IMG/VR virus record: IMGVR_UViG_3300025276_000027 | Span: 1-64,000 of that record | Strand: one strand, 5' to 3' | DNA from: a virus | Length of the DNA: 64,000 nt | Part shown: piece by piece, positions 302-10,903 of the stretch | Numbering within the stretch: position 1 is the stretch's first letter | Layout of the letters: every line of letters begins with the position of its first letter | Program-made: the position numbers and the translations under genes | The notes under the pieces: generated by a model | What the model was told of the DNA's origin: nothing | Databases searched by the model: none | Seen by the model: only the letters and a program-made list of their open reading frames with translations

Positions 302-1282
302 ATGAATAAAAACATTTTTAAAAGCAGAACAAACATATTACCTTATGAATATCCACAATTATTAGCCTATAAAGATGCCATTAGACATTCGTATTGGATT
401 GATACAGAATTTAATTTTACAGAGGACGTACAGGATTTTAAAGTAACTATTACGCCAGCTGAGCGGGATGTTATTAAAAAAACTATGCTTGCTATTGCAC
501 AAATAGAAGTGAATGTAAAAACATTCTGGGCTGATATGTATAAACGTATGCCCATTACTGAAATTGGTGATGTAGGAATGACATTTGCTGAATCAGAAGT
601 AAGACATAAAGATGCTTATGCAAGATTGCTTAGGATACTTGGGCTTGAAAAAGAATTTCAAAGTGTTATAGAAGTACCCGCTATTGCAGGTAGACTTAAG
701 TACCTAAAGAAGTACCTAGATGGTACAAGATCTAGGGATGATAAAATGTATACTAAATCTGTTCTATTATTCTCTTTATTTATAGAACATGTAAGTCTAT
801 TTAGTCAGTTCTTAATTATGATGAGCTTCAATAAAGAAAAGAATGTATTAAAAGGTATTTCTAATGTTGTAGAAGCTACTAGTAAAGAAGAAGAGATTCA
901 TGGTAACTTTGGTGCTGAAATCATTAACATTATTAAGAAAGAAAATCCTGAGTGGTTTGATAAAGAATTTGAAGATCTGATTTACTCTGCATGTATGAAA
1001 GCTTATAGTGCTGAGTGTGATATACTAGATTGGATCTTTGAAAAAGGTGAGCTTAGTTTTTTACCTAAAGAAACTATACAACATTTTATAAGAAACAGAT
1101 TTAATAACTCTCTAGAAAAGATAGGTATGAAACCAATCTTTGATGTTGATGAGGACTTGTTAGAGGCAGTAGAATGGTTTGATATAGAAATAACAGGAAC
1201 CAAAGAAGGAGATTTCTTTTACAAAAAAAGTGTAGATTACAATAAAAAGAGTAAAAGTATAACAATTGATGACATATTTTAA
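302..1282 (+). CDS. nrdB: Ribonucleotide reductase beta subunit, class I (class Id/NrdBi-type signatures)
   Basis: Ferritin-like R2 motifs: AQIE69VNVK73, E99VRH102KDAY106, IEHVSLFSQF, KEEEIH, and C-terminal DFFYKKSVDY...ITIDDIF. Confidence 0.97.
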   Translation: MNKNIFKSRTNILPYEYPQLLAYKDAIRHSYWIDTEFNFTEDVQDFKVTITPAERDVIKKTMLAIAQIEVNVKTFWADMYKRMPITEIGDVGMTFAESEVRHKDAYARLLRILGLEKEFQSVIEVPAIAGRLKYLKKYLDGTRSRDDKMYTKSVLLFSLFIEHVSLFSQFLIMMSFNKEKNVLKGISNVVEATSKEEEIHGNFGAEIINIIKKENPEWFDKEFEDLIYSACMKAYSAECDILDWIFEKGELSFLPKETIQHFIRNRFNNSLEKIGMKPIFDVDEDLLEAVEWFDIEITGTKEGDFFYKKSVDYNKKSKSITIDDIF

Positions 1283-1283
1283 A

Positions 1284-1424
1284 ATGAGTACAGAACAATC
1301 AAACGGAAACACCCAGTTAAATACAGAAAGAAATAAACTTAATAGTAGAGTCTCTAGATATAGAATGCTAGGGCAATCTAAAAAAGTAGTATGGGATGGT
1401 GCAAGAAGAAACAGAACAATTTAA
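1284..1424 (+). CDS. 46-aa basic hypothetical protein between nrdB and nrdA (below ORF-track cutoff)
   Basis: ATG 1 nt after the nrdB stop; MSTEQSNGNTQLNTERNKLNSRVSRYRMLGQSKKVVWDGARRNRTI*; fills the gap, ending 10 nt before nrdA. Confidence 0.65.
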   Translation: MSTEQSNGNTQLNTERNKLNSRVSRYRMLGQSKKVVWDGARRNRTI

Positions 1425-3109: not shown

Positions 3110-3142
3110 AAAAGAAAAAGGGGCCATCTTCAATGGTCCCTT
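3110..3142 (-). terminator. Intrinsic terminator at the convergence of replication and virion blocks
   Basis: Stem AAGGGGCCAT/ATGGTCCCTT (3118-3142) with a 5-nt loop, preceded on + by an A-tract (U-tract on -); lies between convergent genes and may be bidirectional. Confidence 0.65.
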
Positions 3143-3186
3143 CATAGTATGTCATGGGTTTACCACAACTACATGTTTGTGAAGAA

Positions 3187-3576
3187 TTAATAACTGTTGG
3201 CTTTAGTTACTGCTTCCTGTAGTTCAGGAAGATCTATTGGGCATACTAGATTAAGACCTGCTCTATAGTCTTTGTACGCAAAACCTTCTGTAAAAATTAT
3301 TATAGTAGGAGCCATCCTAACTTTGTAACTTTTTTTTGCTACAGGTGCTTTTTTAATATCACATTTATAATATTTAACCCCTGTAAGTTTATCCCATTCT
3401 TTAAACTCATTATCTTTATTAAAATCTGCATAAAACTCTACTATTACAACAGCATATGATTCTCCATAGGCATTTGCACCACTAATCTTACTATCAAAAT
3501 CATCATCTGTTATCCATTCTTGTGCATGTATTGTATAACAAGAAATATATAATAGTAATAGTATTAAGTTTTTCAT
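3187..3576 (-). CDS. Secreted thioredoxin-fold protein lacking CxxC
   Basis: Signal peptide MKNLILLLLYISCYTIHA|QE; Trx pattern ITDDDFD...VVIVEFYADF(NKDN)...KYYKCDI...YKVRMAPTIIIF with the cis-Pro position retained; WCxxC replaced. Confidence 0.75.
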   Translation of the reverse strand: MKNLILLLLYISCYTIHAQEWITDDDFDSKISGANAYGESYAVVIVEFYADFNKDNEFKEWDKLTGVKYYKCDIKKAPVAKKSYKVRMAPTIIIFTEGFAYKDYRAGLNLVCPIDLPELQEAVTKANSY

Positions 3577-3578
3577 GA

Positions 3579-3869
3579 CTATTTTCTACTTAGTTCATAT
3601 AAACGCTCTTCTAATCTTGCTAAGGTTTGTTTAATTTCTTCAACATCCTCTTGGGTGGTCATTATAGTTTCTCTAATTAATTCATCTTTTAAATCATACT
3701 CTACCCGTTCAATGGGTGGTTCAGGTAATACCATTGCTTGTGCAATATCTGCTTTAAGTGTAAACCACATGGTTGAAAGAGATACCACGAAGCCTACTAT
3801 CATACCAATTGTTTTTAAATCTAAAACAACTTTAGTTTGTTCCCCAATCTGAGGTGTTTGTTGTGCCAT
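3579..3869 (-). CDS. Single-TM membrane protein with C-terminal coiled coil
   Basis: Hydrophobic IGMIVGFVVSLSTMWFTL; heptad-rich EDVEEIKQTLARLEERLYEL; tightly spaced to both neighbours. Confidence 0.7.
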   Translation of the reverse strand: MAQQTPQIGEQTKVVLDLKTIGMIVGFVVSLSTMWFTLKADIAQAMVLPEPPIERVEYDLKDELIRETIMTTQEDVEEIKQTLARLEERLYELSRK

Positions 3870-3875
3870 TATTTA

Positions 3876-5135
3876 CTATTTAAATGAAAAGTTTAATCCT
3901 ACTGAAGTATTATATAATTCACTATCCCACATTTTTGCATACTCCCCTTCAAAAAATATACCTAAATTTTTATTTATTTTCCAACCAAAATTAGCTCCAA
4001 AAGAATAGTCTGCCCATTGTTCTGGATCATTATCTAATATTAATCCACCGTTACCCCAGTTGTTTCTATTCAAATAAGAAACTACCTCATCACCTTTTAG
4101 ATATCTATGGTATGGTAATATATAATTAGCATATGCATGCAGCCAAAAGTTTCTTTTATAATGATAAAAGTCTATTCCTACTATTGGTGCTACCTCACCA
4201 AATGCAGGTATCTCTGCCAATGCTTCTCTATTGAAGCGGTTCATCAATTCTGTAAACACACCTTCTCTAAAATCAATATCAGAATAAGCTACTATATTTC
4301 CATCAGCATCTTTCCAAATCCAATCTTGTCTTTCTTCTCCTGTTACTGCATCTGTATAAGTTGTGAAGTGATCTGTGTATCCATATTCAAATCCTAAAGT
4401 ATACCATGGGTGTGATGGAAATTCAACTGGGTTACCATCTTGATCTAAAAAAGGATTACCATTTTCATCATAAAATTGTTCAGTTTCATTAAGCCATATC
4501 TCAATTGGGTTGTAACCATAAGCACGGTCATGAGTTCTATAGATTGCTCCTGCAGAAATACTAAACTTCTCTCCTATAGGTAATCTTAATCTTGCTTCAG
4601 CAGACTGGTAAGCTAAGTTTATCTTTCCTACTTCTCTTGACTCAACTTTAACTATGTGATATTTACCTGTATGTTTTATAAAGAACCTGTGATTTTTAAA
4701 GTTTTCACCTCTCCAGCGTTCTTTCTCCCAATGTAGCTGATACTCTAAACCTTTCAATGCAGAAGTAGGAGCACTAAATGCTAGCTGTTCTTCTGTACCA
4801 TCATAAAAGTTTCTAGGCTTTCTTTCATAACTAAACCTTGCTAGTTTTCTAATACCAAAACCAATTCTATAATCATGTGGATAGTCAGGTGTATTATCTA
4901 CAACAACAGGTATATCATAGAGTCCATCTCCATCCCCTGTTCTAACAAAGTAGGTTGACTCTTCAGCTTCTATTGAGTTGTTTATGTCACCTGCACCGTA
5001 GATAGTACCATACTGTAAAAAGTCTTGATATAATACTTTAAAAAATTTACCTTTTTCTTTTGCTTCTTGTGAGTAAGAAGCATTAGGTAAATTAAGAAGT
5101 ACAACAAAAACCAACAGACTTAAATAATTTTTCAT
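3876..5135 (-). CDS. Putative outer-membrane beta-barrel protein
   Basis: Sec signal ...NASYS|QE; many amphipathic strands with an aromatic girdle (YSFGANFGWKIN, LGIFFEGEY); C-terminal beta-signal-like TSVGLNFSFK. Confidence 0.7.
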   Translation of the reverse strand: MKNYLSLLVFVVLLNLPNASYSQEAKEKGKFFKVLYQDFLQYGTIYGAGDINNSIEAEESTYFVRTGDGDGLYDIPVVVDNTPDYPHDYRIGFGIRKLARFSYERKPRNFYDGTEEQLAFSAPTSALKGLEYQLHWEKERWRGENFKNHRFFIKHTGKYHIVKVESREVGKINLAYQSAEARLRLPIGEKFSISAGAIYRTHDRAYGYNPIEIWLNETEQFYDENGNPFLDQDGNPVEFPSHPWYTLGFEYGYTDHFTTYTDAVTGEERQDWIWKDADGNIVAYSDIDFREGVFTELMNRFNREALAEIPAFGEVAPIVGIDFYHYKRNFWLHAYANYILPYHRYLKGDEVVSYLNRNNWGNGGLILDNDPEQWADYSFGANFGWKINKNLGIFFEGEYAKMWDSELYNTSVGLNFSFK

Positions 5136-5230
5136 ATTTAAATATTAAAGTTATTTTAAATTCCTTTGGTTTATACTATAATATATATAATATCTCTTAA
5201 GTATTAAAATATTTTGTCTGCAAATTTGTC

Positions 5231-8200
5231 TTATTTTATAAAGTAATTGTTCATTCTTAAATACGCATCATACTTTTGTATAGAATAAAGAACAGGGATT
5301 ACATCTTTCCAGTTTTTATAGACTTTAAGTTGCCCTTTTCTAGGTTTTTGTTGATATACAAAACTAGAGTTAGATTTAAATTCTTCATCACTATAATATA
5401 AATAACCAAGTGGTGTTGTTAAACTCATTGAAAGAGCTTCACCTAATTCACCCATTGTTCTTGTTGCTGCTATTGGAGATTTAAACATTTGATATTGTTG
5501 TGTCAAACCATCAGGCAGTAGTGTAAACATAACAAGTTCTTTATATGTTCTATCTGCTTGATACTTTAAGATATTTTTAAATCTTTTAGTTGTATCACTA
5601 TCATCATCGTCACCAGCAAGTAAACCTTGTAATACTTGAGATAGAACAAATGTAGATAACATAATACCTATCTCACCCATAGTTCTATAGAACCCATATA
5701 ATTTATTAGTGGCTCTTTGATCTAGGTTTCCACCTTCACCTGTATAACCATAAGCATCTAAAAAGCCTTTATTATATGTAGAAAATTCTTTATTTCCTTT
5801 TACTATTTCACTTTTAACATAAGCTAAAAATTTAAATGCAGATATATATCTTCCTTCCATCCAACCTAAGTTCTGATCAAAATATTCTCTTTGATACCTT
5901 GCTCTAATTGCTGGAGCAACCCACTTGTGAAACTGAAAAGCTAACTTACCTATAGTAGTACTTTGCATAACTACTCTATCTTCTTTAGCATAGTTACCGT
6001 GTATTTGTTTATTTACTTCTCTTATTTCATTTCTTAAACTATATCTAAACTCATCAGTATATGCTATCTCTGTACCATTCTTTTTAACTACAGTATCAAA
6101 ACCTTCTTTTAATTCATTTTTATGTGTTGTAGAATTATATTGAAAAGCATCATATAAAGATAATGTTTCACCAGTTACTTTATTTTTAATTTGTGTATCC
6201 ATCAAAATTGCCATGCCCACTTTAGTTTGAACATTATATTCTGCAGCATCTTGAAGTATATAACCCCATTCAGTTGCCTTAGCAAACCAACTTTTACCAC
6301 TACTTGTGTCAGATGTTTGTTCACGTAAATCAGACATCTTATCCATCATTCTAAATAGATCTACAAATGCCTCATACTTACTATTAGGTTTTTTTGCATC
6401 ATATGTTGAAGCTGCAGCACCTTTTACTAAACCAAAAGTTAAGACGTCTCCTAAATCACCTACAACATATGAAGATCTTTGAACTAAATCTGGGACTGCC
6501 CTCTTATTAAATTCCCAAGTTGCTCTTCTATATGCTTTTTTACTAAAGAATCTTGAGCCAAGCATTTCTATATTATTGTTAATTCTACCAATAACGTAGT
6601 TATTAAAGTTACCAAAAGGGTTAAATGCCACATAAGATAATGAAGACAATTGAATCAGACCATCTGATATCTTATCTACTGCTCCTTTACTCATAGTATC
6701 TTCTTCATAGAATGTCATAGACATCCACTTATTTGCTTTTCTTAATATATTAGAATCTTTACCTTTTATTATACCTCTTTTCTGGAAAGCACCATCTATT
6801 CTTGTACCTGTGGTTATAGTTGGGTCAGCCGGTTGATACTCACGTTTCTCAATTACTTTTACAAAAGCATTAAGAGTATCTTCAATAGTACCCATGACTT
6901 CATAATTTTCTGCCATAGCACTAAACTTCATCAATGAGTCACCTAAGTCTCTACTTATCTCACCAGTAGTTGGTTGACTTACTAATTTTGCTCTGTCTCC
7001 TCTTAATTCAGCAAGTTGTGTATTATATACTGAAATATTAATTAAACCTTTTTTCTTTTGATCTTTTAAAGTTGAAATTCTTTTATCTAACTCTTCTATT
7101 GCACCTTCCCTTCTTGCACTACCCACATAATAAATTGGCAATTGACTAACTAGATTTCCATTTTCATCTAATGCAACACCTCTTTGTTGTGATGTACTTT
7201 GAAACATTTTCCATGCTTCAGCACCTACAGTTTTTGCATATGCCCTTGAAAACCAACTAGGTTTCTCTTTTAGGTTATTAATAAAATTACCTTTTACTAA
7301 AGGTGTTTTTCCTAACATCTGTGTAAGATAATCAAGCGGTAACTTTTTTAATAAATCATTTTCAAATACATCTACATACATCTCATAGAATTCCTTTTGA
7401 GCCTGACCTAATGCGTCTGTAGGATTCATTATTGCTCTATACTTTGCACTAGTCATGTCTCTACCATCTGCTGTGACTTCACGTGTTTCTATAAATTGTT
7501 CTTTAACAGCTTTAAAGTCTTGACCACGAACAACTGCACCAGTTGGATTACCTTGTCCATCACGTTGAGCTTTTGTATAACTAATTGATTCATAATATTT
7601 AGCTACATATATAGAATATTCTTTATCTGATACTGCTCTAGAGTCTTTACGTCTCCATGTTCCAAAAGGATTTTTATCAGTGCCAGGAACCCAATATTCA
7701 TACCTTCTTCTTTCTTCTATAAAATCAGATGTATATCTATGATACATTCCATCAACTAATTCACCACTCTCATCTTTAATTTCTGCTCTAAAAAAGTCAC
7801 TAAAGGCACGTTTTTTATTTGCTACGTCTATATTATAATCTATGTCTGCTTGAGATGCAGAATCTAAATCAGTTACATCTCTATATAAATAAGGTTTGCC
7901 ATCATTATCATAAAGGACGTTTCTTATTTCTTCTTGTATTTTTCTATATTGTTTACCAATAACTTTTACATATTCACCATCACCTTCATGCATAAAATCA
8001 TAAATCTTTTGTCTATCATTTGTAGGAGAAAGTCTTAAAACTTTATTGGCTAATTTTGTAATTATTTCATTTCTCTGCCCAATATTATCTAATAACCTTT
8101 GTTTTTTATTTTTAAACAACTTATCCATTACAGCAAGCAAAACCTTTGGGGATGTTGCCATATCTTTAGTTTGTAAATCCATAGTGTCAATATCTTGAAC

Positions 8201-10903
8201 ACCATTACCTTCTATGATATCTATTAGATCTTGTTCACTAAATGCACTACCTACTCCACCAAAATCATTATTTGCATTTAGTCTTACTTGTTCAGTTACA
8301 TAATTAGAAATTGCCTGATCAATAACACCAGATCCATCAGTAGTACTACCTGCAAGTTTATTTAAAGCAAGTTGTAGTGATAATAATAAAGATCTTTGTG
8401 TTGCATTAAGCTCTGATGTTTCTTCAACCGAATACAGACCCTGAAAGGTTTTTATAAACCTATCAAAATTATTTGCATATGTTATATACTCAGGTTTAGA
8501 AAAATTAGCGGGATCTTCAATATATTTTGTAAATTCTTTAATTTGTTTTATTGCATCCATCATTAATGCTGAGTATGCTTGAGATCTAGATATAGGTCCT
8601 TCGCTAATAGCTATACCTATATAAGCCAAGTTACTTGCAATATCTTCTTTCATATCCTTCACACTACGGTCCATGAACACACTGCTGCGTACAGTATCCA
8701 TAGCATCTCTTTTAGAAATTAAGCCTATTCTGTATGTCTCAAGTGCAGTAAGCACAGTATTATATTCAGGATAATTATTTAAATCTATATTATCTGCTTG
8801 TTCTTGATCATTTTCAAATTGTTCTTCTGCAACAAAAGGTGCATCATATTGATCCGCAACAGCTTCTTCAAGCTTTCTTGTTTTGTTTTCAGCACTTAAT
8901 GACTCAGGTACAATCATATTTACCATGTCTTCGTTTTGCATAGGAGGATGATCAACAAGACCATCTTCTTTTATGTTACCACCAAACTTTTGATCTTTAC
9001 CTTTACCTGTAATATCTGCTACAAAGTGTACAGTTGCAGCTGCATAGTCACCTTGATATACTTGATAACCCATGTTTTCAGCCATCCTTCTATAGATGTT
9101 TACCTGTAAATTATGTTGTTCTCTAGTAGATAATGCTTGAATTCCTAGTTGAAATAGTATACTGTCTGTACTTAAATCCCAAGATTTATCATATTTTTTA
9201 AGTGTTAGTGATCCACCCTTTGTAGGTCTAAAGTATCTAGATGAAATTGAGTTTTTACTTGTCTTTAAATCTAATATTCTAACCTTACCGGTTTTGTCAA
9301 TGATCATTAAATCAACTGTGCCTGCTGTTTTAGTTGCATCATCAAATAGAACTACCTGTGATAATGCTATAGAATCTTCAGGCATTAGAAATTTTAGAGC
9401 AGATTGTAATTGATTATATACTTGATTTGCAATTTCAGGAGTAAGTAAGTTTAAACTAACTGTATCTAAAGATTCGCCAGCAATAAGAGCATCTAATAAA
9501 GCATCTACATCATTACCTACATCAAGATTCATCTGTACATCTTCTTGATTTTTTAGTTTACCTTTTATCTGTGTTGTGACAGAGTTATATTGCTCCCCCG
9601 TATTTATATTATAATATGTATGATCTTTTTCATTAAGAATAACAATTGATCCATCAGATGTATCTTTTAAATTTGCTGATAAAAAATCAACATCTGTTTC
9701 TGTTGTCTGTGCAACATGAAACATTTTATCTAGTATAATTTTTTGTACACCATTTGCTGAATTCCTTTGTATATCTAAAGCCTTTTTCTTTTGTGGAGAA
9801 AGGTTATATCTAATTTTACCATTTACCCTACTCTCTAATTTAAATTGTATACCTTCTGTATTTAAGAGTTTAGCAAGATCAGTAAAGTTAGTATCTGAGT
9901 TTATTGCAGATACTGGTACTTCTCTTCCTGTAAGATATTCATTTAAGTTATTTATGACATTCATAAACCACTCTAATGCGTCCTTTATTAAATCTGAAAA
10001 TCTACGTGTGGGTGTAGTTTCATATTCTTCTCTAAAATGTCTAGCTAATGCTTGTGTAACTATCTCTAAATCTCTATCTGTTTCACTAAAGCGTCTTTCT
10101 TTATTATATGAATCAGTGATTTCTTGTACCATCTCTGGAAAATTGATCCTAGCTTCAGCTAATAAATTATTAAACAAAGTATTATTATCTACTTTAATAG
10201 CATCTATAAATGGGTGTAGCATTTCCTCTATTGCTACTTCATTTGTTACTCTTCCTTTTATTAAGTATGCTGTACCATCCACATAAAAAGAGTTCATTTT
10301 ATCAAAAGGAACATTGCTTTTTTTCCATGATGGCATTTCATTATACATAGCTTTAGCATCAGATATAGATAACATTTCAACATTAACTTGAGGAAACATT
10401 CTTTTAAGATGCATTACTACTGCTCTAGCTCTAGGAGTATCCCAAGCTCTTGATGATTCAATCATATCTTTTGTTGTAAACATGTCTTCATTTACAGTTA
10501 CTCTATATGATTGCGTTGTTCTTTCAATTGTTACTCTATTCTCTGGAATATTATTTATAGATAAATACCTTTTAAGTCTTTTTAAATTACTGTTTAAATA
10601 AAACTCATCATACTGTTGAGTATTAGGATTTGAATTATTTATATAAAATTTATTTTGGAAACTATGCCCTATCCTTTCTCTTCGTAAATTATTTAATAAA
10701 CTATCTGAAAAGTTTCTTTGTTTTAAAGAAAATAATAATTTCTGATTACTTACAAATTCACTTGCTTCTAAAGCAGTAGGGAACGTATCTACATTATTAA
10801 GATCTTGCCATTGATTAATAACATTATTAGTGGCAATTTCTGTTTTATATACACCTTGCAATGCTTTATATTCAGCAGTATTTTTATTAGGACATCTAGC
10901 CAT
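5231..10903 (-). CDS. Large virion cargo/ejection protein with PD-(D/E)xK nuclease and degenerate zincin domains
   Basis: AGTVDLMIID...ILDLKT plus QVNIY (RecB-like, about 9090-9330); EEMLH at 10214-10228; directly follows the vRNAP gene as in crAss-like phages. Confidence 0.75.
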   Translation of the reverse strand: MARCPNKNTAEYKALQGVYKTEIATNNVINQWQDLNNVDTFPTALEASEFVSNQKLLFSLKQRNFSDSLLNNLRRERIGHSFQNKFYINNSNPNTQQYDEFYLNSNLKRLKRYLSINNIPENRVTIERTTQSYRVTVNEDMFTTKDMIESSRAWDTPRARAVVMHLKRMFPQVNVEMLSISDAKAMYNEMPSWKKSNVPFDKMNSFYVDGTAYLIKGRVTNEVAIEEMLHPFIDAIKVDNNTLFNNLLAEARINFPEMVQEITDSYNKERRFSETDRDLEIVTQALARHFREEYETTPTRRFSDLIKDALEWFMNVINNLNEYLTGREVPVSAINSDTNFTDLAKLLNTEGIQFKLESRVNGKIRYNLSPQKKKALDIQRNSANGVQKIILDKMFHVAQTTETDVDFLSANLKDTSDGSIVILNEKDHTYYNINTGEQYNSVTTQIKGKLKNQEDVQMNLDVGNDVDALLDALIAGESLDTVSLNLLTPEIANQVYNQLQSALKFLMPEDSIALSQVVLFDDATKTAGTVDLMIIDKTGKVRILDLKTSKNSISSRYFRPTKGGSLTLKKYDKSWDLSTDSILFQLGIQALSTREQHNLQVNIYRRMAENMGYQVYQGDYAAATVHFVADITGKGKDQKFGGNIKEDGLVDHPPMQNEDMVNMIVPESLSAENKTRKLEEAVADQYDAPFVAEEQFENDQEQADNIDLNNYPEYNTVLTALETYRIGLISKRDAMDTVRSSVFMDRSVKDMKEDIASNLAYIGIAISEGPISRSQAYSALMMDAIKQIKEFTKYIEDPANFSKPEYITYANNFDRFIKTFQGLYSVEETSELNATQRSLLLSLQLALNKLAGSTTDGSGVIDQAISNYVTEQVRLNANNDFGGVGSAFSEQDLIDIIEGNGVQDIDTMDLQTKDMATSPKVLLAVMDKLFKNKKQRLLDNIGQRNEIITKLANKVLRLSPTNDRQKIYDFMHEGDGEYVKVIGKQYRKIQEEIRNVLYDNDGKPYLYRDVTDLDSASQADIDYNIDVANKKRAFSDFFRAEIKDESGELVDGMYHRYTSDFIEERRRYEYWVPGTDKNPFGTWRRKDSRAVSDKEYSIYVAKYYESISYTKAQRDGQGNPTGAVVRGQDFKAVKEQFIETREVTADGRDMTSAKYRAIMNPTDALGQAQKEFYEMYVDVFENDLLKKLPLDYLTQMLGKTPLVKGNFINNLKEKPSWFSRAYAKTVGAEAWKMFQSTSQQRGVALDENGNLVSQLPIYYVGSARREGAIEELDKRISTLKDQKKKGLINISVYNTQLAELRGDRAKLVSQPTTGEISRDLGDSLMKFSAMAENYEVMGTIEDTLNAFVKVIEKREYQPADPTITTGTRIDGAFQKRGIIKGKDSNILRKANKWMSMTFYEEDTMSKGAVDKISDGLIQLSSLSYVAFNPFGNFNNYVIGRINNNIEMLGSRFFSKKAYRRATWEFNKRAVPDLVQRSSYVVGDLGDVLTFGLVKGAAASTYDAKKPNSKYEAFVDLFRMMDKMSDLREQTSDTSSGKSWFAKATEWGYILQDAAEYNVQTKVGMAILMDTQIKNKVTGETLSLYDAFQYNSTTHKNELKEGFDTVVKKNGTEIAYTDEFRYSLRNEIREVNKQIHGNYAKEDRVVMQSTTIGKLAFQFHKWVAPAIRARYQREYFDQNLGWMEGRYISAFKFLAYVKSEIVKGNKEFSTYNKGFLDAYGYTGEGGNLDQRATNKLYGFYRTMGEIGIMLSTFVLSQVLQGLLAGDDDDSDTTKRFKNILKYQADRTYKELVMFTLLPDGLTQQYQMFKSPIAATRTMGELGEALSMSLTTPLGYLYYSDEEFKSNSSFVYQQKPRKGQLKVYKNWKDVIPVLYSIQKYDAYLRMNNYFIK

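Follow-up and report, generated by a model that had tools for sequence, protein, structure and literature searches.

The DNA analysed here is a window of 64,000 nucleotides (nt; positions 1 to 64,000) of the IMG/VR record IMGVR_UViG_3300025276_000027, a 77.8-kb record from an uncultured marine crAss-like phage, which has a tail-ring protein matching the Pfam family CrAss_Ring_1 and several giant genes on the minus strand. At the end of a long block of minus-strand genes lie three open reading frames (ORFs), at positions 5135–3876, 3869–3579 and 3576–3187, which are separated by 6 nt and 2 nt respectively and encode proteins of 419, 96 and 129 amino acids (aa). We will refer to the 419-aa barrel protein as P419, to the 96-aa protein as P96, to the 129-aa thioredoxin-fold protein as TRX (p129), and to the three together as the trio. 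An initial annotation of this DNA had described the tight spacing of the genes and placed their products in the outer membrane, the inner membrane and the periplasm; the coordinates, strand and gaps are as it claimed, and all three locations hold as predictions. It knew of no described function for the trio, and we likewise found no description of a P96/TRX/P419 module in the literature searched. The features set out below lead us to propose, tentatively, that the three proteins form a spanin-like bridge across the cell envelope, of which P96 and TRX are the core.

P419 (3876–5135, minus strand) has an N-terminal hydrophobic leader followed by Gln, contains no Cys, and ends in VGLNFSFK. This ending is an instance of a C-terminal signal of the form G-x-N...F/K, and G-x-N is found within the last 10 residues in 136 of 137 non-identical homologues. 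The protein belongs to no Pfam, PHROG or NCBIfam family at E values up to 1. An AlphaFold model built on 30 diverse homologues, of moderate confidence (predicted local distance difference test score, pLDDT, 73.9), is almost entirely beta-strand, and outer-membrane barrels, mostly 12-stranded, are the only structures that Foldseek matches to it, at probability 1.0. VIA, a search independent of Foldseek, likewise returns outer-membrane barrels alone, with Z scores of 11.6 for the EstA barrel, 10.8 for KdgM, 10.6 for both NanC and NalP, 10.2 for both LpxR and Tsx, and 9.7 for OMPLA, the resemblance being spread equally over several unrelated 12-stranded families. The first proposal that the 419-aa protein folds as a barrel thus withstands modelling, and P419 is predicted to be an outer-membrane beta-barrel with a signal peptide and a C-terminal beta-signal, both features of substrates of the beta-barrel assembly machinery (BAM).

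Counting back from the C-terminus gives 12 strands. When topology and membrane sides are read from the order of strands in the DSSP string, rather than from coordinates, a large loop at about residues 203–311, which varies in length and carries Asp/Gly/Asn-rich motifs, would be extracellular, and a turn of 31 residues at 98–128 (GIRKLARFxYE...FYDGTE) would be periplasmic. This turn is the most conserved stretch of the family and yet is modelled at low confidence, a combination that would be expected of a segment that binds a partner.

P96 (3579–3869, minus strand) has one hydrophobic segment, at approximately residues 21–38, followed by a short Pro-rich linker and an acidic, helical tail of 53 residues that contains 14 acidic and 8 basic residues and no Cys. 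Because the N-terminal flank of the hydrophobic segment is the more positive one, the protein is probably oriented N-in, C-out, and its single hydrophobic segment and helical acidic tail agree with the earlier description of an inner-membrane protein with one transmembrane segment and a coiled coil. Conserved residues are K19, F36, E57, D62 and R66, together with the motif E(Y/F)xxKDExxR. Against PspC (TIGR02978) P96 scores 24.3 bits (E 2e-5), below the curated cut-off of 104; the two share an inner-membrane helix followed by a leucine-zipper-like periplasmic helix, and the resemblance is architectural only. Matches to unnamed PHROGs are sub-threshold throughout, and one P96 variant weakly matches a holin/anti-holin PHROG (E 5e-4), over the membrane segment only. 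Many P96 homologues (P0278, P0285, P0291 and others) are labelled 'copper chaperone CopZ' by the Joint Genome Institute (JGI), a label that looks spurious as they are without the metal-binding Cys motif.

TRX (3187–3576, minus strand) has a signal peptide and a cysteine-free thioredoxin fold, and ends in Tyr. It matches the Pfam family Thioredoxin (PF00085) at E 6e-6 (26.6 bits, above the gathering score of 23.5), the profile of its family matches solved thioredoxins at E 1e-6 to 1e-7, and the top Foldseek matches of its model (pLDDT 87.8) are all thioredoxins. With the TrxA-type thioredoxins of PF00085 it shares the fold and the cis-proline loop; the cis-Pro is invariant in the family, and the invariant residues include Q19, A50 and P90. 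It differs from them in being exported by a signal peptide and in having lost the WCGPC motif, which is replaced across the whole family: FNKDN occupies this position in the TRX of the window, and 16 diverse homologues have F/W-N/V-x-x-N there, with no Cys conserved. Since the CxxC is replaced and no Cys is conserved, TRX cannot act as a redox enzyme, and the family match, profile and model together uphold the view of it as a redox-dead thioredoxin fold, predicted to be periplasmic. The possibility that TRX is a lipoprotein was also considered and is ruled out as Cys is not conserved; only the variant at locus L089 has a lipobox-like sequence (LASC).

The leaders of the TRX family are of the signal-peptidase-I type (..A/S/G-Q), and the Gln that follows them is invariant in the alignment, while the Gln after the P419 leader is near-universal in the barrel alignment. 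Both match the Q-rule for signal-peptide cleavage in Bacteroidetes (PMC5837995) and so point to a Bacteroidota host, as had been suggested when the leaders were first noticed. The TRX variants of loci L179–L183, L187 and L193 (at about 5289–5657) have no Gln behind the leader, and a CxxGxC pair precedes their first strand; they may come from phages of non-Bacteroidota hosts. In locus L203, an ordinary cytoplasmic thioredoxin with an intact WCGPC (1083–1397, minus strand) is encoded about 4 kb from the cysteine-free exported TRX.

A large metagenomic protein collection holds 2,377 homologues of P419, none of them named, and a full HMMER scan of representatives gave 251, again all unnamed; for P96 the number is at least 7,984. 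Searching 50,697 deposited phage records, those of cultured phages included, at both the DNA and the protein level, we found no relative of any trio protein, and searches of the Protein Atlas returned viral clusters only, plus outer-membrane families at chance level. In a scan of 185,579 species genomes no host ancestor of the trio proteins was found, and the only matches were 12 contigs from metagenome-assembled genomes (MAGs). The taxonomy of these contigs is contradictory (Woesearchaeota, Nitrosopelagicus, Pelagibacter and Flavobacteriaceae), and those inspected carry the trio or other phage genes; they look like phage DNA that has been mis-binned into cellular genomes. MAG contigs that carry the barrel gene (L082, L083, L087, L089 and L090) were binned as Woesearchaeota, Nitrosopelagicus, Parvibaculum and Pelagibacter.

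The neighbourhoods of these genes provide further insight. We collected 92 loci around P419 homologues and annotated them with seed proteins for the trio and for separately checked lysis genes; barrel-locus counts refer to the 65 loci that have at least 1.5 kb on both sides, and are to be read with the bias introduced by the queries and with the close relationship of many of the loci in mind. P96 and TRX stand beside the barrel gene in all 65, in two gene orders. The trio genes thus co-occur in other genomes, as had been anticipated, and do so far beyond chance. An endolysin gene is present within 2 kb and on the same strand in 49 of the 65. Divergent single P96 queries gave 156 further loci, and among non-identical P96/TRX loci an endolysin lies within 3 kb in 74 of 114. 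The endolysins are of three unrelated types, namely Peptidase_M15_3 (E 7e-15), a 201-aa protein matching the endolysin phrog_33083, and a type with a peptidoglycan (PG)-binding domain and an amidase. Holin-like genes (phrog_3427, E 1e-17), whose homologues in Vibrio phages are annotated as holins beside an endolysin, also occur in these cassettes and often overlap the endolysin genes. Loci of the L058 type have P96, TRX, P419, a gene for a small membrane protein, endolysin and holin in this order, with 4-nt start/stop overlaps throughout, which implies that the six genes constitute one coupled operon.

Other genes recur in the same cassettes. A lipoprotein family with a lipobox, a short conserved domain and a low-complexity tail rich in Tyr, Pro and Asn is found in 44 loci (for example L170:4322–4696, L002:7248–7658, L065:7883–8311 and L104:6577–7047), situated between the barrel gene and P96, after the endolysin, or just before P96. 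The window has no copy of this lipoprotein, which could serve as an alternative partner in the outer membrane. In 10 loci (such as L058:4958–5371 and L018:7118–7588) a protein of about 137 aa that is hydrophobic at its centre is encoded ahead of P96, in L018 being inserted between the barrel gene and P96; it may represent a fourth associated gene.

The three genes were initially regarded as a single cassette. This holds for the barrel, which is always accompanied by P96 and TRX, but not for the P96-TRX pair, which also occurs without the barrel. We see four arrangements: barrel, P96, TRX, endolysin and holin; P96, TRX, barrel, a second P96-TRX pair and endolysin; P96, TRX, endolysin and holin, without a barrel; and loci with duplicated copies of P96. 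In five complete or near-complete genomes with the P96-TRX pair, profile searches over the entire record gave no barrel, which rules out an indivisible trio. Two near-complete genomes of 33 kb have a 52-aa membrane protein, P96, TRX, an M15 endolysin and a holin as their only lysis or envelope genes, and have no lipoprotein, so that here the P96-TRX pair fills the slot where spanin genes would be. P96-TRX is a two-gene core module, and the barrel is an optional third part. The 52-aa protein, which has a single membrane pass, overlaps the start of P96 in barrel-less cassettes (L120:4858–5016 and 23 other loci) and is a candidate holin or antiholin.

The C-terminus of TRX differs according to whether a barrel is present. 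Of 124 non-identical TRX sequences encoded next to a barrel, 123 have Phe or Tyr as their last residue, and these span three deep subfamilies with identities of 17–30% (endings ..ASQF or ..ANSY, ..ESKF, and ..MSAF). The same ending is found in none of the 10 TRX proteins of second pairs and in 6 of 53 from barrel-less loci, several of these 6 probably having a barrel beyond the collected stretch. These counts are inflated by relatedness, although the trait still tracks the barrel across deep branches. We take this pattern, seen in sequence comparisons, as a sign that the TRX C-terminus may dock on the barrel. A fusion of TRX to a partner was also sought as a sign of contact; the sole case, P0391, is a truncated TRX that runs into a barrel with its own leader, and is probably an artefact.

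The phage of the window departs from the usual placement. In 16 of the 65 barrel loci there is no adjacent endolysin, and all but one of these (L091) belong to the crAss-like clade of the window itself. The probable endolysin of this phage lies outside the window, on the minus strand at 74.9–75.8 kb of the record (G000 74901–75821) and far from the trio; it has a PG-binding domain and an amidase-like part and is 47% identical to the endolysin of L088. Five complete relatives also have the endolysin tens of kb from the trio, and in many relatives the trio comes after ribonucleotide reductase genes of the same strand. The barrel gene of the window is preceded by an AT-rich gap of 95 nt (5136–5230; 15.8% GC as against 31.8% for the window), which agrees with the initial annotation and is a possible promoter region for the minus strand, although sigma-70-like matches within it are weak and no more frequent than in shuffled sequences. 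Beyond this gap, a 1,890-aa protein (5231–10903, minus strand) matches the exonuclease phrog_298 over residues 414–613 (E 1e-12). At the other end of the trio, a terminator-like hairpin with a U-run occupies 3110–3143 on the minus strand, before the convergent ribonucleotide reductase genes. The hairpin itself, at 3143–3117, has a folding energy of -12.3 kcal/mol (z -2.95 relative to shuffled sequences), and UUUUUCUUUU comes after it. A terminator had been claimed here; the hairpin and U-run are present, but a strict terminator scan reported none behind the trio, and the case is weaker than was claimed.

Taken as a whole, these observations make a role of some kind in lysis likely. For the particular form of that role we favour, with a probability of roughly 0.4, a bridge across the envelope that resembles a spanin and disrupts the outer membrane during lysis. 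P96 would be anchored in the inner membrane, its helical tail reaching into the periplasm, TRX would be exported to the periplasm and serve as a connector, and P419 would be inserted by the host BAM and serve as an anchor in the outer membrane, where it probably binds the Phe/Tyr C-terminus of TRX. Together they would form a chain that connects both membranes across the cell wall and that disrupts or fuses the outer membrane after the wall has been removed by the endolysin. This proposal builds on the folds, the predicted locations (which cover all three envelope layers), the linkage of the genes, their position within lysis cassettes, and the way in which the TRX C-terminus varies with the presence of the barrel; to these it adds physical contacts, a timing of expression and a membrane-disrupting activity, all of which are conjectural. 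Three functions had been offered at the outset, namely superinfection exclusion, nutrient uptake and spanin-like disruption, and the presence of the genes inside holin/endolysin cassettes in most lineages favours the last; uptake is unsupported and exclusion weakly supported.

Several points weigh against such a bridge. Every contact among P96, TRX and P419 is putative. The lipoprotein that defines an o-spanin is absent, the roughly 53 periplasmic residues of P96 are short for spanning the periplasm, and the barrel-less phages are without anything that would anchor TRX to the outer membrane. Spanins are usually fast-evolving, and P419 is 62–70% identical among relatives in which the neighbouring ribonucleotide reductase is about 39% identical. 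Finally, the distance of the trio from the endolysin in the window and its close crAss-like relatives, and its position behind reductase genes in many relatives, are not what the proposal would lead one to expect.

The placement of the genes in lysis cassettes would also be accounted for if the trio controlled the timing of lysis. In this model P96 would be holin-like or would bind the holin, TRX would be its antiholin-like partner, as T4 RI is for the holin T, and the barrel would be a sensor or gate in the outer membrane, responding for example to superinfection, the whole setting the time of lysis. P96 is predicted to be a single-pass, N-in protein with a periplasmic domain, as in T4-type holins, and the variant mentioned above that matches a holin/anti-holin PHROG through its membrane segment is in keeping with this, as is the occurrence of the P96-TRX pair without a barrel in some genomes; the duplicated copies of P96 and of P96-TRX suggest regulatory variation. 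However, these cassettes already contain holin-like genes distinct from P96, we found nothing homologous to RI, to T or to a known antiholin, and it is hard to justify a dedicated and highly conserved outer-membrane barrel for this purpose. We regard control of lysis timing as unlikely.

The layout in the window would suit superinfection exclusion or receptor masking, in which the barrel would block or modify receptors, as has been reported for lambda Lom, and P96 and TRX would deliver or hold the barrel. In the window and in the crAss-like phages related to it, the trio is separated from the endolysin and is preceded by an AT-rich gap of its own, and in many relatives it comes after the reductase genes; in addition, the large variable loop, if extracellular, could contact surface molecules. 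Phage-encoded outer-membrane barrels are common, have been surveyed in huge phages, and have been proposed to act in superinfection exclusion (bioRxiv 10.64898/2026.10.24.761521). Like Lom and the other phage barrels, P419 is a phage-encoded beta-barrel with a signal peptide that would rely on host export and on insertion by BAM. Lom, however, is 8-stranded, stands alone and is tied to exclusion or adhesion, whereas P419 is predicted to have 12 strands, is always accompanied by inner-membrane and periplasmic partners, and is usually found inside a lysis cassette. Translational coupling to endolysin and holin in most lineages implies late expression, exclusion leaves the obligatory inner-membrane and periplasmic partners unexplained, and the barrel is far more conserved than genes of an arms race typically are. 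A role in exclusion appears to us distinctly unlikely.

More doubtful still is the notion that the barrel does the work itself, as an enzyme or pore that resembles OMPLA or LpxR and breaks down or perforates the outer membrane during lysis, with P96 and TRX as a separate or regulatory module. The lipid-acting proteins LpxR and OMPLA are among the 12-stranded look-alikes of P419 (Z 10.2 and 9.7), but these fold matches are generic, and transporters and autotransporter barrels score as high or higher. The conserved polar residues of P419, which include R200, H202, H333, D376 and E396, and the high conservation of the barrel sequence would suit an enzyme; however, no catalytic motif of OMPLA, LpxR or PagP was identified in P419. 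That P96 and TRX occur without the barrel is compatible with separate modules, yet a TRX C-terminus that co-varies with the barrel points to the two functioning together. An auxiliary metabolic role during infection as a nutrient-uptake porin is highly improbable, since, although P419 is a predicted barrel and lies beside nucleotide-metabolism genes in some genomes, a 12-stranded barrel with an N-terminal helix is atypical of general porins and neither the fixed inner-membrane and periplasmic partners nor the placement in lysis cassettes would be explained.

To our knowledge, little is known of the way in which Bacteroidota phages break through the outer membrane when an infection ends. The module described here is found very often in ocean viromes, has no representative in the 50,697 deposited phage records, and is located at the spanin position in many genomes; what is new in the present analysis is the independence of the P96-TRX pair, the aromatic signature at the TRX C-terminus, and the 12-strand topology with its conserved and putatively periplasmic turn. 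If the envelope bridge is correct, a new mechanism would be added to the textbook lysis pathway, the lysis genes of a large proportion of marine phage genomes would become open to annotation, and the virus would be a rare example of one that supplies its own BAM-inserted barrel and reuses the thioredoxin fold as a structural connector. The Phe/Tyr end of TRX offers a simple handle by which this could be tested.

The closest known systems are the two-component spanins, such as lambda Rz/Rz1, T4 PseT.3/PseT.2 and T7 gp18.5/18.7 (Kongari et al. 2018, PMC6139136), which perform outer-membrane disruption in phages of Proteobacteria, the same job that the proposed bridge would do. P96 resembles an i-spanin in having an N-terminal membrane helix, a helical and charged periplasmic tail, and a predicted class II (N-in, C-out) orientation, and the TRX gene directly follows P96 in both gene orders as well as in barrel-less loci, mirroring the order of i-spanin and then o-spanin (PMC6139136). 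The placement of spanin genes in a lysis cassette is matched in part of the loci, an endolysin being near in 49 of 65 barrel loci and 74 of 114 P96/TRX loci but tens of kb away in the window and the crAss-like phages closest to it. Like spanins, the products of the trio are predicted to reach from the inner to the outer membrane. There is, however, no sequence similarity between the two systems. TRX is a folded, cysteine-free protein with an ordinary signal peptide and not a lipoprotein, an o-spanin lipobox with its lipidated Cys being absent as a conserved feature from TRX and P419 having no Cys at all; the outer-membrane anchor, when present, is a third protein, the 12-stranded barrel; the tail of P96 is short; and conservation is much higher than in spanins. 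With no conserved lipoprotein, no sequence similarity and a short P96, the module is not a canonical spanin.

Few spanins can be recognised among the flavobacterial phages in culture (PMC8776804), and some 15% of phages have none (bioRxiv 10.1101/515445). A precedent for outer-membrane disruption by something other than a spanin, encoded in a lysis cassette, is the disruptin of phiKT (gp28; bioRxiv 10.1101/515445), which is a single small cationic peptide that the trio does not resemble in sequence, fold or composition. It is possible, and we put this forward with somewhat more reserve than the bridge itself, that P96 and a redox-dead TRX, with the barrel as an optional anchor, constitute a third system of outer-membrane disruption beside spanins and disruptin, one that thousands of uncultured marine phages, most of them infecting Bacteroidota, would employ and that would answer how the phages of this spanin-poor phylum finish lysis.

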